Origin: Candidatus Vampirococcus lugosii
Lineage (GTDB): Bacteria > Patescibacteriota > Gracilibacteria > Absconditabacterales > Absconditicoccaceae
DNA: 7,530 nucleotides
Assembly (NCBI RefSeq): GCF_018420025.1
Contig: NZ_JAEDAM010000078.1
Coordinates: 1 to 7,530, forward strand
Direction of reading: 5' to 3'
The translations under genes were made by a program, and so were the position numbers. Positions within the stretch are counted from its first letter, which is position 1; each line of letters starts with the position of its first letter. Positions 1 to 7,530 of this stretch are shown piece by piece. The notes under the pieces were generated by a model. It saw only the letters and a list, made by a program, of their open reading frames with translations, was not told the origin of the DNA and did no database searches.

Positions 1-1
1 T

Positions 2-589
2 AATATCTATGAATTCATATCTGAATACATAGATATTAATTGAAAACCAGTAGCTGTTTATCTTGATCGTCATTCTGCATACAAAATCAATCATCCAAAA
101 GATCAATTTGATAAAGAAATGCTTAGCAGATTACAAGTTGCTTGTAATATATTATGAATTGAAGTTATTTATTCTAAGTGTCCTGAATGAAAATGAAGAG
201 TTGAAAATTCATTTAAAACACATCAAGACAGACTTATAAAAGAGATGAGACTTGCTTGAATTAAAAACATTGTTTCTGCTAATAAATTCTTATATGATTA
301 CTACATACCTAAACATAATAATAAGTTCTCTGTTGAAGCTAAAGTGTCTTGAAACTTCCATGTTCCTATCACTAAATATGAAAAAGAAAATCTTGAATGG
401 TTCTTTGCTAAAAAAGAGAAAAGAATTATTAAAAGAGATTGAACTGTTAATTACATGAATACAAAATATCAAATACATAAAAAACAATATTTACCTGCTT
501 GAAAGCAAGTAAATGTTGTTACATCTATGTTGGGGAAACTTAAAATATTTTCTTGAAATGTAGAATTATTATTTGATATTATTAATTAA
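2..589 (+). CDS. rve/DDE transposase, C-terminal fragment (5' end outside window); table 25
   Basis: With TGA=Gly it reads NIYEFISEYIDINGKPVAVYLDRHSAYKINHPKDQFDKEMLSRLQVACNILGIEVIYSKCPEGKGRVENSFKTHQDRLIKEMRLAGIKN...LFDIIN*. The LDRHS and KGRVEN motifs are the second Asp and the Glu of an integrase-core DDE triad. Stop TAA at 587..589. Confidence 0.85.
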
Positions 590-601
590 TTATTTATATT
601 A

Positions 602-650
602 TTACTGACATTTCTATTTTTGTTTTTTTACTGACATTTTAAAGTTGCTG
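602..650. repeat. IS right terminal inverted repeat (IRR) containing two TTACTGACATTT direct repeats
   Basis: TTACTGACATTT occurs at 602..613 and 628..639. The reverse complement of 606..650 aligns with 3326..3369, with shared blocks CAGCAAAGTT/AAAGTTGCTG, TGTCAGTA and AAATAGAAATGTCA. Confidence 0.6.
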
Positions 651-718
651 TTACAAGATTTATTTTGGGTGAATTTGTCAAATTTTTGGGAGTGAAGAAG
701 TTTATTTTGGACAAATCA

Positions 719-1597
719 TTACAAAATAATATCTTTCATATATCAATTTTTCTCTAAAACTTTTTTTAATTCAGCTCTATTAGCTAAATTAAATCATACT
801 TGGCTCCAAATTTTATGTTTTTCTTCTATTTGATTTTGTATTTTATTAAAAATTTTAACAAAATTTATTGAAATTTGCTCAAAACTTAATCACTCTCTTT
901 TACTATCTATATAATTTTTTTCAAAACAATCTACCAAATTGATACTTTTTCAGTCAACTGAAATATTAAGTAGTTGTTGTCTAGTATTTGCATATTTTAT
1001 GTTTTCTCATTGTCTTATACCATCCCAAAAACTATCTCTAACAATTACGGGTGCTATTATTTCTTTTAGATAATCATGTCAAACATCTGATAATTCTCAT
1101 ATTTTACTATAAACATTTTTAATTTGTTTTTCTCGTATAATATGACAATATTCATGCAAAAATATGTCTAAATAATTATTTTCTTGATTTTTGAATACTT
1201 CAGTTACAATAGAAAACTTTATAATATCACTACCAAATGTAGAACTTGGTAAAAAACTTGGATATATATGGACAGTCTCGTTATTTATTTGGTAGTCCAT
1301 AGTTTTACAAAAACCCTCCACGATTTTTTGTTTGTTTCAATTAAACAATTTTTTCCATTTTTTAATTATATCATCTATCTTGTATTTATATTCAAAATAT
1401 TTTTGTTCCAAAAAGTTATCAACTAATTTTTCTCATTCTGCTTGAGATATATTCTCTATATTAGCCAAACTATAATAACAAAAAAATATTGATTTACGAA
1501 CATGTCATCGTTTGTGGATATGTTTTTTTTCAAAGAGAAATTTTTTGAAAGATATTTTATCTTTTTCTACATCGCATTTTATTTTAAAATTTAGCAT
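719..1597 (-). CDS. 292-aa hypothetical protein with an HExxH motif (putative Zn-metallopeptidase, candidate leader peptidase); table 25
   Basis: Open only with TGA=Gly (10 in-frame TGA codons). ATG at 1597 lies 9 nt after the upstream TAATAA stop; stop TAA at 719..721. Sequence MLNFKIKCDVEKDKISFKKF...NYLDIFLHEYCHIIREKQIKNVYSKIGELSDVGHDYLKEII...KNGYMKDIIL. HEYCH is at 1142..1156. I do not recognise the family, so the function rests on the motif and context only. Confidence 0.7.
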
Positions 1598-1606
1598 GAG
1601 TATTTA

Positions 1607-2989
1607 TTATAATATTTCAATTATCTTTTTTTTATAAAGCATAAATAAAAATTTATTTAATTTTTTTTCATCAATTCAGATCTCTGAAGAAAGTTCAGAT
1701 AAAGAAAAATAATCTTTTTTTAACAATCTTTTTAACAAATATCATGAATCTCTAGTTACCATAGTATTAGCATATCACAAAGACAGAATATATCAATCAT
1801 TTTCTTCTCTGAAAATAATATTAGGTGATACTCTTAACTTTTCTCAAAGAAGAGAAGTAACCTTAATTTTATTTTGTTCCAACAATAGATGTATTTTTTT
1901 TCTATTAACTGGTTTTGCATAAGGATCCATTTGATTTATTTCTCATGTTGTTCACTTTGCTTCCATTCTACATCATCATGTACATTTTGATAAATATTCA
2001 CAAGACACACATGTTTCTGGAATCAAATCTCAATTTCTCCATTCCTGCATATTTTGCCATATTTCATCTAAATTTTTTTGAAATATATTTCAATAAGACA
2101 TGTCAGCATGAGTACATGGTCTAACTTCTCAGTCTGCTCATATTATTGAGGATGTTATTCAAGCAGTACACTTATGTCTAGAAAATTCTGCAAACTCAGG
2201 TATCTCTGACAATAAACACAAAGGATAACATTCTAATATGTCTACATACAATCATTGTTCTTTTTTTAGTCTTACTAAATCAGAAAGACTCAAAATAACA
2301 TCATCCTTATCAACAGCATAATCCATAAAGTTTGGTATGTTTGCTGGCCAAGATCATTTTGTAGCGAAAAAACTTTTAACTCATAGTTCTTTCAAAAAAT
2401 TACCTGTTTCATAAACATGGTCAATATTTAATTTTGTTAGGACCATATTAACTCAAATTTTAATATCCTCATCTAAAGCCGTTTTTATTCAAGAAATAAC
2501 TTTATTAAAATTTCATTCTTTTCAAGTAATTTGATCATGAACTTTTGAATCATAAGAAGTTAATGATGTTAAAATAGACCTCAATCATTTACTTTTTAGC
2601 TCTTGTGCTAATTTTTTTGTTAATAACATAACATTTGAGTTTAAACTGCAGGAGATTCAATGTTCAGAAAGTTGTTCTATTAAGAACAGAACGACATCTT
2701 TTTTGATTAGTGGTTCTCATCAAGTTATTCAAACATGGAAAACTCATGCTTTTTTCAATTGCTCAATAATAATTTTTGCTTTTTCAATATCAAGATGAAT
2801 ATGATTTCTATCAGTAATTTGCCAAGAATTGTAGCAATGTATACAGCTAACATTACAACTACTAGTTACTTCTATCTGCATACTTAATGGTGCAGATAGT
2901 TGTCTAGCAAAGTTTCATTTTAATGAATTTACCTTATTTGATTTTTCTCAGTTGCTACATATTTCATTACAATTATCACATCTATTCAT
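1607..2989 (-). CDS. Radical SAM/SPASM-domain peptide maturase (460 aa) with a C-terminal PqqD-like (RRE-type) domain; table 25
   Basis: Open only with TGA=Gly (29 in-frame TGA codons). MNRCDNCNEICSNGEKS...MQIEVTSSCNVSCIHCYN gives CX3CX2C at 2834..2857. VGITGGEPLIKK gives GGEPL at 2708..2722, with both Gly encoded by TGA. The SPASM signature is CTAGITSSIIGADGEVRPC (CX12GX4C) plus CVSCEYLSKCTGGC (CX2CX5CX3C, 1970..2011). The C-terminal ~80 aa read LRVSPNIIFREENDGYILSLGYANTMVTRDSGYLLKRLLKKDYFSLSELSSEIGIDEKKLNKFLFMLYKKKIIEIL. Stop is TAATAA. Confidence 0.93.
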
Positions 2990-3033
2990 GTTAATGTAAT
3001 ATATATTTAGATAAATACTGCATTGTGTTTAAA

Positions 3034-3060
3034 TCTCCAGCCAGACATTCTGACTGGAGA
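3034..3060 (-). terminator. Stem-loop between precursor and maturase genes (candidate attenuator or partial intrinsic terminator)
   Basis: Minus-strand RNA UCUCCAGUCAG-AAUGU-CUGGCUGGAGA forms an 11-bp stem (one G-U pair) with a 5-nt loop. Only a short UUU follows. It starts 9 nt after the precursor stop and ends 44 nt before the maturase ATG. Confidence 0.5.
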
Positions 3061-3069
3061 TGTTGAAGT

Positions 3070-3207
3070 TTATGAATCGCATGGTGTATTGTCGCAATCA
3101 CATGCATCACACAAATCGCAATTATCACAGTAATCACAACTGTCACATGATTCTGCAACAACATCACCATCACCAAACAAACTAACAAAACCGAGATCCA
3201 GACTCAT
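3070..3207 (-). CDS. 45-aa Cys/Asp-repeat RiPP precursor peptide (8 Cys, each followed by Asp)
   Basis: MSLDLGFVSLFGDGDVVAESCDSCDYCDNCDLCDACDCDNTPCDS*. ATG at 3207 lies 5 nt after a perfect AAGGAGG. It sits directly upstream of, and on the same strand as, the rSAM/SPASM gene. Stop TAA at 3070..3072. It contains no TGA codon, so it is visible in the standard-code track as the 3' part of ORF 3070..3297. Confidence 0.8.
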   Translation of the reverse strand: MSLDLGFVSLFGDGDVVAESCDSCDYCDNCDLCDACDCDNTPCDS

Positions 3208-3212
3208 AAATA

Positions 3213-3219
3213 CCTCCTT
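3213..3219 (-). promoter_or_regulatory. Shine-Dalgarno site AAGGAGG for the precursor peptide
   Basis: Plus-strand CCTCCTT is AAGGAGG on the minus strand, with a 5-nt spacer (TATTT) to the ATG at 3207. Confidence 0.65.
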
Positions 3220-3276
3220 TTTTTTATAAAGAATTAATGTTACAATAATTACAACCATTGCAACTACTGTAATATT

Positions 3277-3304
3277 CTTATAAAGATCTTTTTTCAAAAA
3301 TCAA
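3277..3304 (-). promoter_or_regulatory. Candidate sigma70-like promoter for the cassette (TTGATT-16 nt-TATAAG)
   Basis: The minus strand reads TTGATT (3304..3299), 16 nt, then TATAAG (3282..3277), about 70 nt upstream of the precursor ATG and about 22 nt from the IS end. In DNA this AT-rich, such matches arise easily by chance. Confidence 0.2.
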
Positions 3305-3325
3305 CACTTTTTGGCTCTATTGTGC

Positions 3326-3371
3326 CAGCAAAGTTAAATTGTCAGTACTAGGCACAAATAGAAATGTCAAT
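3326..3371. repeat. IS left terminal inverted repeat (IRL)
   Basis: CAGCAAAGTTAAATTGTCAGTACTAGGCACAAATAGAAATGTCAAT. The two (A)AAT(T)GTCA(G/A)T motifs at 3336..3347 and 3362..3371 mirror the two TTACTGACATTT repeats of the IRR. Confidence 0.6.
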
Positions 3372-3407
3372 ATAATAATATTGTTTTATTTTTTAAAAAA
3401 CAATATT

Positions 3408-4551
3408 ATGAATTTACTTTATACTGACAAACAAATGAACAAAGTCCGTATTATCCAAAAACTTATCGATAATAAGATAAACATCAAAGATGTTTGTGAT
3501 GCTTTAAGTTGTTCTGAAAGAACTGTTTATAGATATAAATCTACTCTTATCAATGAATGACCTCCTGGATTCATTCATTGATTAAAATGAAAAGTTTCCA
3601 ATCACAATCCATATTCCTCAAAACATCAAGACTTAGATAGAATAATAACTCAAAATAAGTTTATTTGATTTTGACCCACATTTTTATCTGAAAAGCTTCT
3701 TGAGATCTATTGATTCTATATCAATAAAGAATCTCTTAGAAAAAGAATGATTAGATTGTGATTATGGTTACCAAAACCAAAAAAGACTGTAGTTAAAAGG
3801 AAAAAAAGAGAAAGAAGTAAATCATTTTGATTACTTATTCAAATTGATTGATCTTAATCATGATTGGTTTGAAGATTGATCTGAATATTGTCTCATAAAT
3901 GCTGTTGATGATGCTACCTGAAAAACTACTCATGCTAAATTTACTACTTGAGAGTCCCTTATTAATATCTATGAATTCATATCTGAATACATAGATATTA
4001 ATTGAAAACCAGTAGCTGTTTATCTTGATCGTCATTCTGCATACAAAATCAATCATCCAAAAGATCAATTTGATAAAGAAATGCTTAGCAGATTACAAGT
4101 TGCTTGTAATATATTATGAATTGAAGTTATTTATTCTAAGTGTCCTGAATGAAAATGAAGAGTTGAAAATTCATTTAAAACACATCAAGACAGACTTATA
4201 AAAGAGATGAGACTTGCTTGAATTAAAAACATTGTTTCTGCTAATAAATTCTTATATGATTACTACATACCTAAACATAATAATAAGTTCTCTGTTGAAG
4301 CTAAAGTGTCTTGAAACTTCCATGTTCCTATCACTAAATATGAAAAAGAAAATCTTGAATGGTTCTTTGCTAAAAAAGAGAAAAGAATTATTAAAAGAGA
4401 TTGAACTGTTAATTACATGAATACAAAATATCAAATACATAAAAAACAATATTTACCTGCTTGAAAGCAAGTAAATGTTGTTACATCTATGTTGGGGAAA
4501 CTTAAAATATTTTCTTGAAATGTAGAATTATTATTTGATATTATTAATTAA
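3408..4551 (+). CDS. HTH + rve/DDE transposase (~380 aa) in two frames; needs a +1 shift at 3855 (possible pseudogene or recoding); table 25
   Basis: Frame 1, 3408..3854: MNLLYTDKQMNKVRIIQKLIDNKINIKDVCDALSCSERTVYRYKSTLINEGPPGFIHGLKGKVSNH...FIGFGPTFLSEKLLEIYGFYINKESLRKRMIRLGLW...SFGLLIQIDGS, then TAA. Frame 2, 3856..4551: NHDWFEDGSEYCLINAVDDATGKTTHAKF...YLDRHSAY...CPEGKGRVENSFKTHQDRLIKEMRLAGI...*. There are 21 in-frame TGA=Gly codons. The joined sequence QIDGS|NHDWFED matches the conserved first-Asp region of this transposase type. Confidence 0.85.
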
Positions 4552-4563
4552 TTATTTATATTA

Positions 4564-4612
4564 TTACTGACATTTCTATTTTTGTTTTTTTACTGACATT
4601 TTAAAGTTGCTG
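4564..4612. repeat. IS right terminal inverted repeat (IRR), copy 2 of 602..650
   Basis: Identical to 602..650. TTACTGACATTT occurs at 4564..4575 and 4590..4601, and the repeat ends in AAAGTTGCTG. Confidence 0.6.
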
Positions 4613-4680
4613 TTACAAGATTTATTTTGGGTGAATTTGTCAAATTTTTGGGAGTGAAGAAGTTTATTTTGGACAAATCA

Positions 4681-5559
4681 TTACAAAATAATATCTTTCA
4701 TATATCAATTTTTCTCTAAAACTTTTTTTAATTCAGCTCTATTAGCTAAATTAAATCATACTTGGCTCCAAATTTTATGTTTTTCTTCTATTTGATTTTG
4801 TATTTTATTAAAAATTTTAACAAAATTTATTGAAATTTGCTCAAAACTTAATCACTCTCTTTTACTATCTATATAATTTTTTTCAAAACAATCTACCAAA
4901 TTGATACTTTTTCAGTCAACTGAAATATTAAGTAGTTGTTGTCTAGTATTTGCATATTTTATGTTTTCTCATTGTCTTATACCATCCCAAAAACTATCTC
5001 TAACAATTACGGGTGCTATTATTTCTTTTAGATAATCATGTCAAACATCTGATAATTCTCATATTTTACTATAAACATTTTTAATTTGTTTTTCTCGTAT
5101 AATATGACAATATTCATGCAAAAATATGTCTAAATAATTATTTTCTTGATTTTTGAATACTTCAGTTACAATAGAAAACTTTATAATATCACTACCAAAT
5201 GTAGAACTTGGTAAAAAACTTGGATATATATGGACAGTCTCGTTATTTATTTGGTAGTCCATAGTTTTACAAAAACCCTCCACGATTTTTTGTTTGTTTC
5301 AATTAAACAATTTTTTCCATTTTTTAATTATATCATCTATCTTGTATTTATATTCAAAATATTTTTGTTCCAAAAAGTTATCAACTAATTTTTCTCATTC
5401 TGCTTGAGATATATTCTCTATATTAGCCAAACTATAATAACAAAAAAATATTGATTTACGAACATGTCATCGTTTGTGGATATGTTTTTTTTCAAAGAGA
5501 AATTTTTTGAAAGATATTTTATCTTTTTCTACATCGCATTTTATTTTAAAATTTAGCAT
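4681..5559 (-). CDS. HExxH-motif hypothetical protein, second identical copy
   Basis: Identical to 719..1597 shifted by 3962. Confidence 0.7.
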
Positions 5560-5568
5560 GAGTATTTA

Positions 5569-6951
5569 TTATAATATTTCAATTATCTTTTTTTTATAAA
5601 GCATAAATAAAAATTTATTTAATTTTTTTTCATCAATTCAGATCTCTGAAGAAAGTTCAGATAAAGAAAAATAATCTTTTTTTAACAATCTTTTTAACAA
5701 ATATCATGAATCTCTAGTTACCATAGTATTAGCATATCACAAAGACAGAATATATCAATCATTTTCTTCTCTGAAAATAATATTAGGTGATACTCTTAAC
5801 TTTTCTCAAAGAAGAGAAGTAACCTTAATTTTATTTTGTTCCAACAATAGATGTATTTTTTTTCTATTAACTGGTTTTGCATAAGGATCCATTTGATTTA
5901 TTTCTCATGTTGTTCACTTTGCTTCCATTCTACATCATCATGTACATTTTGATAAATATTCACAAGACACACATGTTTCTGGAATCAAATCTCAATTTCT
6001 CCATTCCTGCATATTTTGCCATATTTCATCTAAATTTTTTTGAAATATATTTCAATAAGACATGTCAGCATGAGTACATGGTCTAACTTCTCAGTCTGCT
6101 CATATTATTGAGGATGTTATTCAAGCAGTACACTTATGTCTAGAAAATTCTGCAAACTCAGGTATCTCTGACAATAAACACAAAGGATAACATTCTAATA
6201 TGTCTACATACAATCATTGTTCTTTTTTTAGTCTTACTAAATCAGAAAGACTCAAAATAACATCATCCTTATCAACAGCATAATCCATAAAGTTTGGTAT
6301 GTTTGCTGGCCAAGATCATTTTGTAGCGAAAAAACTTTTAACTCATAGTTCTTTCAAAAAATTACCTGTTTCATAAACATGGTCAATATTTAATTTTGTT
6401 AGGACCATATTAACTCAAATTTTAATATCCTCATCTAAAGCCGTTTTTATTCAAGAAATAACTTTATTAAAATTTCATTCTTTTCAAGTAATTTGATCAT
6501 GAACTTTTGAATCATAAGAAGTTAATGATGTTAAAATAGACCTCAATCATTTACTTTTTAGCTCTTGTGCTAATTTTTTTGTTAATAACATAACATTTGA
6601 GTTTAAACTGCAGGAGATTCAATGTTCAGAAAGTTGTTCTATTAAGAACAGAACGACATCTTTTTTGATTAGTGGTTCTCATCAAGTTATTCAAACATGG
6701 AAAACTCATGCTTTTTTCAATTGCTCAATAATAATTTTTGCTTTTTCAATATCAAGATGAATATGATTTCTATCAGTAATTTGCCAAGAATTGTAGCAAT
6801 GTATACAGCTAACATTACAACTACTAGTTACTTCTATCTGCATACTTAATGGTGCAGATAGTTGTCTAGCAAAGTTTCATTTTAATGAATTTACCTTATT
6901 TGATTTTTCTCAGTTGCTACATATTTCATTACAATTATCACATCTATTCAT
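5569..6951 (-). CDS. Radical SAM/SPASM peptide maturase with C-terminal PqqD-like domain, second identical copy
   Basis: Identical to 1607..2989 shifted by 3962. Confidence 0.93.
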
Positions 6952-6995
6952 GTTAATGTAATATATATTTAGATAAATACTGCATTGTGTTTAAA

Positions 6996-7022
6996 TCTCC
7001 AGCCAGACATTCTGACTGGAGA
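6996..7022 (-). terminator. Precursor-maturase intergenic stem-loop, second copy
   Basis: Identical to 3034..3060 shifted by 3962. Confidence 0.5.
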
Positions 7023-7031
7023 TGTTGAAGT

Positions 7032-7169
7032 TTATGAATCGCATGGTGTATTGTCGCAATCACATGCATCACACAAATCGCAATTATCACAGTAATCACA
7101 ACTGTCACATGATTCTGCAACAACATCACCATCACCAAACAAACTAACAAAACCGAGATCCAGACTCAT
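7032..7169 (-). CDS. 45-aa Cys/Asp-repeat RiPP precursor peptide, second identical copy
   Basis: Identical to 3070..3207 shifted by 3962. The AAGGAGG site is at 7175..7181. Confidence 0.8.
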   Translation of the reverse strand: MSLDLGFVSLFGDGDVVAESCDSCDYCDNCDLCDACDCDNTPCDS

Positions 7170-7287
7170 AAATACCTCCTTTTTTTTATAAAGAATTAAT
7201 GTTACAATAATTACAACCATTGCAACTACTGTAATATTCTTATAAAGATCTTTTTTCAAAAATCAACACTTTTTGGCTCTATTGTGC

Positions 7288-7530
7288 CAGCAAAGTTAAA
7301 TTGTCAGTACTAGGCACAAATAGAAATGTCAATATAATAATATTGTTTTATTTTTTAAAAAACAATATTATGAATTTACTTTATACTGACAAACAAATGA
7401 ACAAAGTCCGTATTATCCAAAAACTTATCGATAATAAGATAAACATCAAAGATGTTTGTGATGCTTTAAGTTGTTCTGAAAGAACTGTTTATAGATATAA
7501 ATCTACTCTTATCAATGAATGACCTCCTGG
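7288..7530 (+). mobile_element. Left (5') part of a third IS copy, truncated by the window end
   Basis: Identical to 3326..3568 (IRL plus the transposase N-terminus). Confidence 0.7.
7370..7530 (+). CDS. Transposase N-terminal (HTH) fragment; 3' end outside window
   Basis: Identical to 3408..3568: MNLLYTDKQMNKVRIIQKLIDNKINIKDVCDALSCSERTVYRYKSTLINEGPP... Confidence 0.85.

Follow-up and report, generated by a model that had tools for sequence, protein, structure and literature searches.

Contig NZ_JAEDAM010000078.1 of Candidatus Vampirococcus lugosii, a predatory bacterium from the Candidate Phyla Radiation (CPR), displays the same three-gene radical S-adenosylmethionine (rSAM) peptide cassette twice, in alternation with copies of one insertion sequence (IS). 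This raises the question of whether the cassette is amplified in this organism or whether the second copy was written by the assembler. The window that we analyzed is the entire contig, with a length of 7,530 bp and a G+C content of 26%. We regard it as highly probable that the repeat, which has a period of 3,962 bp, is an assembly-graph cycle that was written out and that gives no indication of an amplification. Which physical form the DNA behind this cycle has is much less certain.

The 3,962-bp repeat and the assembly graph

When the contig was compared with itself at a shift of 3,962 bp, all compared positions matched (3,568/3,568; 100% self-identity), and none of the other periods between 3,900 and 4,020 bp gave a self-match above 50%. 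The perfect 3,962-bp periodicity that had been described in an earlier note on this DNA was therefore confirmed with zero differences, and the order of elements given there, partial IS, cargo, IS, cargo, and partial IS, with every copy in direct orientation, was also correct. The contig start truncates the first IS, of which only the 3' part is present (1-656, plus strand, equal to 3963-4618 by the period). It is followed by the first copy of the cargo, which comprises the cassette and is bounded by the IS termini (657-3320, minus strand), by a complete ISNCY-family IS that begins with TGT and ends with ACAA (3321-4618, plus strand), by the second cargo copy (4619-7282, minus strand), which is identical to the first by the same period, and finally by a 5' part of the IS that is truncated by the contig end (7283-7530, plus strand, equal to 3321-3568). 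The unit of 3,962 bp thus consists of an IS of 1,298 bp and a cargo of 2,664 bp. The earlier sizes of about 1,287 bp and 2,675 bp had the correct sum and were adjusted on the basis of three independent copies of the IS.

The first and last positions of the contig correspond to unit positions 3963 and 3568, respectively, and its length equals 2 x 3,962 - 394, which means that only the 394 bp of 3569-3962 are missing from two full turns. In other words, the contig is a 3,568-bp arc, followed by the 394-bp arc 3569-3962, followed by the same 3,568-bp arc.

The genome was obtained from consortia of about 10 cells after multiple displacement amplification (MDA; two libraries) or MALBAC (one library), and the 2x125-bp Illumina datasets were each assembled by SPAdes 3.6.0 with default parameters (PMC8080830). 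This source paper makes no mention of the element. As no read or read pair of 2x125 bp spans a perfect repeat of 3,962 bp, the second copy is without independent support. The zero differences between the copies are as expected from graph edges that were used again, and the proposal of a tandem amplification as a dosage mechanism is without support. The description of the cassette as IS-bracketed is supported, as both cassette ends abut IS ends; an amplification is not shown, as a short-read de Bruijn assembly of whole-genome-amplified DNA cannot count the copies of such a repeat. Most likely, SPAdes walked a closed de Bruijn cycle about 1.9 times, and the two-copy layout would then not be a measured duplication.

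Two Logan contigs provided an independent view of the locus. L050 (SRR13241709, 2,793 bp) was 100% identical to positions 627-3419 of the window, and L051 (SRR13241708, 1,631 bp) was 100% identical to positions 2988-4618. The two consecutive runs appear, by these identities, to be V. lugosii libraries. Both IS/cassette junctions, 3320|3321 and 4618|4619, were confirmed by these contigs. Logan assemblies use k=31 and contain every 31-mer once per accession by construction, so that contig ends mark branch points and copy number is unreadable. L051 ended exactly at the right terminus of the IS (4618), and L050 started exactly 30 nt (k-1) before the IS end, at the equivalent of 4589. In both runs, therefore, the final 30 nt of the IS have two or more different continuations. 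The graph is a cycle with a reproducible exit at the right end of the IS and no reproducible entry. A circular contig that was written out more than once was also among the possibilities listed in the earlier note, and a physical circle may or may not underlie the cycle. An IS-circle junction, with the right end of the IS joined to its left end, was also considered as the extra neighbor of the right terminus; it is unsupported, as the left terminus shows no branching.

The ends of the SPAdes contig also deserve attention. Only seven hairpins in the unit have a stem of 11 bp or longer. Together they cover 224 nt, or 5.7% of the unit, and both contig ends (unit positions 3568 and 3963) fall within two of these seven, with a chance of about 0.003. 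The contig end (7530, equal to 3568) lies within the 10-nt loop of a hairpin with a 13-bp stem at 3547-3584. The contig start (1, equal to 3963) lies 2 nt inside a hairpin with a 19-bp stem and a 4-nt loop at 3961-4002 (equal to 1-40; LINIYEFISEYIDIN), which is located inside the transposase gene. As MDA chimeras are mostly inverted junctions that were primed at short complementary sequences (PMC1855051), we infer that the contig ends at these hairpins are probably branches caused by MDA chimeras, where the walk through the cycle would have stopped.

Some observations weigh against this explanation of the repeat. A plain chromosomal IS-cassette-IS arrangement predicts breaks at both IS termini, and neither Logan run showed a break at the left terminus (3320|3321). 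The second break differed between the runs, being at 3419/3420 beside a hairpin (3375-3409) in L050 and at 2988 in L051, so that there is no consistent entry into the cycle. In addition, SPAdes passed the right end of the IS into the cargo twice without stopping, which suggests a coverage of the cycle far above that of the side branch, as would be found with a real circle or a multi-unit array. Finally, no other V. lugosii protein record carries the transposase, and a second copy of the IS elsewhere is undocumented; within this species, the branch at the right terminus is the sole evidence for mobility of the IS.

For users of the databases, the conclusion that the repeat is a written-out cycle has a practical side. 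The deposited contig of this CPR predator holds a duplicated cassette beyond what the data support, and both copies are annotated; all three cassette proteins have two GenBank accession numbers apiece, one per copy. Gene counts or readings of an "amplification" that are taken from this contig would be wrong or unproven.

Physical forms of the DNA behind the cycle

What kind of DNA could give rise to this graph? The form that survives best, to which we would give about an even chance, is a single chromosomal IS-cassette-IS arrangement, with the cycle being only an effect of the graph. The cassette, which is chromosomal in relatives, would have become flanked by copies of a multicopy IS in the manner of a composite transposon. 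As the left end of the IS abuts the precursor side of the cassette and the right end abuts the side of the HExxH protein in the reads, the graph would close at 3,962 bp without any circle in the cell. The exit at the right terminus of the IS fits such an arrangement, and the missing branch at the left terminus speaks against it.

The relatives contribute much to this assessment. In contigs L002-L007, the cassette (60% identity for the rSAM enzyme and 41% for the HExxH protein) has housekeeping genes as neighbors (glmS-like, aminoacyl-tRNA synthetase, and sigma-70) and lacks a transposase, and L016 has a similar context, also without the IS. In relatives, the cassette is an ordinary conserved chromosomal module. 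The IS in turn is a real multicopy mobile element in Absconditabacterales and neighboring lineages. In one Absconditabacterales metagenome-assembled genome, JBAZRN01, six contigs (L023, L024, L026-L029) carry its left-end motif at a distance of about 100 nt from a contig end, and the same holds for five contigs (L041, L044, L046-L048) of one metagenome, Ga0172379. Such a pattern is typical of an IS at which short-read assemblies break, and the IS is a major reason why the assemblies of these genomes are fragmented. That an ISNCY element which is multicopy in Absconditabacteria lies on both sides of the cassette is a plausible first step towards its mobilization.

Target-site duplications may point in the same direction. 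Direct repeats of 6-7 bp flank the IS copies in L012 and L013, and no target-site duplication of this size flanks the IS copy of the window or that of L011. This lack would be easier to reconcile with two independent insertions, one on either side of the cassette, than with a single insertion into a circle, for which a duplication would have been expected. A single insertion of the IS into a 2.66-kb circle was considered as a separate candidate and is unsupported for the same reason.

An extrachromosomal 3,962-bp circle as the main form of the DNA is a tentative possibility. It would be non-replicating, excised via direct IS copies or formed in the manner of a translocatable unit, and strongly over-amplified during MDA, through rolling-circle synthesis by phi29. 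Both confirmed junctions close the cycle, and SPAdes twice traced it past both ends of the IS, which suggests that the cycle was dominant. The hairpins at the contig ends would be in keeping with a small template that was highly amplified and gave rise to many snap-back products, and the lack of a left-terminus branch in either Logan run, which is awkward for the chromosomal form, is what a circle would give. However, the right terminus of the IS has another neighbor in both runs, which means that the cycle is not isolated. The unit also lacks a replication function, its transposase is frame-broken, and the lack of a target-site duplication has been mentioned above. Moreover, a second cycle that involves this IS family is known. 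Contig L049 (Ga0102937_1023527, 2,527 bp) is cyclic with a terminal overlap of 123 bp and a unit of 2,404 bp, and it contains only an intact ISNCY element (about 1,292 bp) and an IS30-like element (about 1,065 bp, with a 333-aa transposase and its own inverted repeats). L049 shows that cycles of this kind arise from repeats.

A true tandem amplification in the chromosome, (IS-cassette)n with n of at least 2, which would have arisen by unequal recombination between IS copies and would increase the peptide dosage, is unlikely. Recombination between direct IS copies could in principle turn IS-cassette-IS into either a circle or an array, and the graph of an array would be the same as that of a circle, with the exit at the right terminus of the IS fitting the last unit. 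The deposited contig does display two cassettes, but 2x125-bp reads cannot support them, a consistent entry junction is missing in L050 and L051, and relatives carry a single chromosomal cassette.

In a wider sense, a real and abundant, non-replicating 3,962-bp circle or multi-unit array that mobilizes a Cys/Asp-rich modified peptide and increases its dosage is a rather doubtful proposition. If true, it would be a vehicle resembling a translocatable unit in a predatory CPR bacterium with a reduced genome, and the peptide would possibly be directed against prey or competitors.

An autonomous plasmid with a size of only 3,962 bp, in favor of which there is just the closed cycle, is close to refuted, as the IS and the three cassette genes fill the unit without any Rep, Par, or Mob domain and as the same cassette is chromosomal in relatives. 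In agreement with the earlier note, which had found the unit to be free of replication, partition, and relaxase functions, comparisons of the four unit products with Pfam and NCBIfam detected no replication initiator, partition, or relaxase/transfer domain. The only non-coding parts of the cargo are about 60 bp and about 110 bp beside the IS ends. There are no tRNA genes in the window, no credible Rfam family was found in it, and a scan of the IMG/VR viral contigs with one exact pattern of the element gave no match.

The insertion sequence and the peptide cassette

Having assigned the repeat to a written-out cycle with high probability, we turn to the two parts of the unit. The bounds of the IS were set by three independent metagenome contigs, L011, L012, and L013, which are 85-87% identical to the window at the nucleotide level over 3318/3321-4617/4618, show no similarity outside this range, and have unrelated flanks. 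The left inverted repeat (TGTGCCAGCAAAGTTAAATTGTCAGTA) is at 3321-3347 on the plus strand and has a second TGTCA(G/A)TA motif just inside, and the right inverted repeat at 4591-4618, also on the plus strand, is accompanied by a subterminal repeat of TTACTGACATTT at 4565-4576. The two inverted repeats are complementary at 23 of 28 positions, and the same termini are found in L011-L013. The conserved termini can be written as TGTGCCAGCAA.GTTAAATTGTCAGTA ... ACAN, and a further motif that resembles TGTCAGTA is found in a subterminal position at each end. The 3961-4002 palindrome, which coincides with the contig start, is kept in the related IS copies of L011, L012, and L013, where it was detected as reverse-strand matches.

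The transposase is split into two open reading frames (ORFs) on the plus strand. The N-terminal ORF (3408-3857, 149 aa) contains the helix-turn-helix region and ends with a TAA that results from a 1-nt insertion, and the C-terminal ORF (3844-4551, 235 aa, MBS8122363) contains the DDE core in another frame. When stitched together, the 380-aa transposase scored 321.6 bits against NF033594 transpos_ISNCY_2 (cut-off 250; model positions 2-357 of 368), which assigns the IS of the unit, by its predicted product, to the ISNCY family. In direct comparison to L011-L013, the window has one extra A at 3856/3857 (GATCTTAATC against GATCTT-ATC), and this insertion creates the TAA and thereby splits the gene. 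As the frameshift was reproduced in the independent Logan contig L051, it is not a SPAdes error.

A programmed frameshift was considered and rejected. Close relatives have an uninterrupted 380-aa ORF, and the lesions in the window, L013, and L001 are at three different places. By this comparison, the break is a defect rather than a programmed recoding. Intact relatives of 380-383 aa are plentiful, and most of them were found on contigs of about 1.3 kb. Frame-broken copies thus make up three of the five examined copies of the IS family, and the three breaks are at separate sites between residues of about 147 and about 190. The lesion in L013 is an extra A within an A-run near the window-equivalent position 3920, and the transposase of L001 is split further downstream, at about 3276-3375.

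L001 (Logan SRR14710925, 3,961 bp), which represents a divergent lineage, is the only other contig that pairs the cassette with this IS family. Its identities to the window are 52% for the rSAM enzyme, 35% for the HExxH protein, and 47-49% for the transposase; its IS agrees with that of the window in orientation and in the side of the cassette on which it lies, and the contig begins at about the left terminus of the IS. This pairing could reflect an independent insertion with target preference or an old association. The idea that L001 is the same kind of circle was rejected, as it has no terminal overlap of at least 15 nt; the near-equal length is a coincidence of similar parts. Likewise, the rSAM-homologue contigs of about 2.67 kb, P0009 and P0018, were rejected as cargo pieces cut out at the IS, as they have other gene neighborhoods and the standard code.

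The cassette contains three genes on the minus strand. The first encodes a Cys/Asp-rich precursor peptide of 45 aa (MSLDLGFVSLFGDGDVVAESCDSCDYCDNCDLCDACDCDNTPCDS; 3070-3207, and 7032-7169 in the second copy), with AAGGAGGT located 5 nt upstream of the ATG. The second encodes an rSAM/SPASM enzyme of 460 aa (1607-2989 and 5569-6951; WP_213349794) with Pfam matches to Radical_SAM (2.7e-24), Fer4_12, and SPASM (2.1e-8). It is 100% identical to P0001, the GenBank/RefSeq protein of Candidatus Vampirococcus lugosii. The third gene encodes a 292-aa protein with an HExxH motif, HEYCH (719-1597 and 4681-5559; translated with code 25).

These genes are read with a variant code. Table 11 fragments the ORFs of the window, and long ORFs are restored when TGA is a sense codon. 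The radical-SAM motif reads GITGGEPL only if TGA encodes glycine. The rSAM gene has 29 in-frame TGA codons, 1 GGN codon, and 4 TGG codons, and in an alignment with six standard-code rSAM homologues, 96 of the 159 cells opposite TGA contain Gly and none contains Trp. As TGA aligns to Gly and never to Trp, the organism uses code 25, and table 25 was also used in the source genome paper (PMC8080830). The almost complete encoding of glycine by TGA in the rSAM gene (29 TGA vs 1 GGN) is extreme even for a code-25 genome with 26% G+C.

For the precursor, RefSeq annotates 45 aa (WP_213349795) and GenBank annotates 75 aa with a TTG start (MBS8122357); the 45-aa form fits the strong Shine-Dalgarno sequence and is the likely one by this sequence feature. 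No family match was found for the precursor in Pfam or NCBIfam, and its UniRef label, "4Fe-4S ferredoxin-type", looks like a false positive caused by the Cys pattern. Homologues are encoded at 199-336 of L001, 9776-9913 of L002, about 1601-1780 of L009, 2411-2569 of L010, and 2459-2611 of L015, and the C-terminal motif CDCD(N/R/E)T(P/A)C is kept in all of them. A leader sequence LGF(V/I)S(L/I) is common to close relatives. The precursor family adjoins homologous rSAM/SPASM enzymes in six lineages, and more distant CPR lineages retain the rSAM enzyme, an HExxH homologue, and a precursor that ends with the same C-terminal motif. With an rSAM core and a SPASM domain beside a short conserved precursor, the cassette is a predicted rSAM/SPASM cluster for a peptide that is made by the ribosome and modified after translation (RiPP). 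A hairpin with a 13-bp stem and no T-run is located between the stop codon of the precursor and the start codon of the rSAM gene (3033-3061 and 6995-7023). By its position, it is a candidate for an attenuator or for an element of RNA stability, either of which would set the ratio of precursor to enzyme. The approximately 110 C-terminal residues of the rSAM enzyme beyond SPASM (1607-1940) gave only weak helix-turn-helix-like matches with an E-value of about 0.02, and this extension may be a peptide-recognition or winged-helix domain.

The HExxH protein matched nothing in Pfam, NCBIfam, or the PDB sequences even at E=10, and UniRef names it DUF2268 domain-containing. H148, E149, and H152 are invariant in six homologues with identities down to 19%. 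As homologues adjoin the rSAM gene in L001, L002-7, L016, L010, and L015, they belong to the same conserved neighborhood, and the protein may be a leader peptidase. Single-substitution variants of the locus were seen in other datasets, namely, Y42S in the HExxH protein of P0243 (2,993-bp contig, Logan and ENA) and E28D in the region upstream of the precursor in P0247 (1,349-bp contig, Logan). A second allele or copy, an error of MALBAC, or a sister strain might account for these. In our view, this uncharacterized CPR-wide cassette of precursor, rSAM/SPASM enzyme, and HExxH protein, and not the repeat, is the more original item, and it merits a study of its own.

Comparison with known systems

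With its short Cys-rich precursor next to an rSAM/SPASM enzyme, the cassette resembles the clusters of ranthipeptides and SCIFF peptides. It differs from them in that the precursor matches no library family and that the partner is an HExxH protein, which is known here from sequence alone; a SCIFF maturase model was not among the 25 best NCBIfam matches of the rSAM enzyme. PapB, which forms Cys-Asp thioethers in CX3D motifs (PMC9413430), is a further point of reference, as the precursor core CDSCDYCDNCDLCDACDCD has overlapping C-x3-D spacings. However, the enzyme reached only 71.4 bits against NF047865 rSAM_PapB, for which the cut-off is 340, and thus falls outside this family.

As in a composite transposon, the same IS sequence brackets the cassette on both sides in direct orientation, and the lack of a target-site duplication across the single IS is as would be expected from two independent insertions. 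Unlike in a typical case, the outer flanks and a second physical copy of the IS were not seen, and the only transposase copy that was seen is frame-broken. The closed unit of one IS plus cargo without replication genes also resembles the translocatable units of the IS26 type. Here, however, the IS is of the ISNCY family and not of IS6/IS26, and the transposase is broken; as the IS family differs, the element is not an IS26-type translocatable unit.

The closest parallels of the contig itself are found among assembly products. Assemblers have been documented to output one genome 2.0-6.8 times over, probably as an artefact (CheckV; PMC8116208), and repeats such as transposons cause phantom cycles in assembly graphs (DomCycle; PMC9104695). 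The contig shares with these cases that the same sequence is present about 1.9 times with zero differences, that a short-read assembler was used, and that an IS with a side branch at its terminus is part of the cycle. It differs in its ends: a circle is usually recognized by an overlap of k bases between the contig ends, whereas the overlap here is 3,568 bp and the ends lie in hairpins inside the IS, which points to extra graph branches such as those from MDA chimeras. In comparison with all of these systems, the element works like an IS-flanked cassette, and the contig belongs with the assembly concatemers and phantom cycles.

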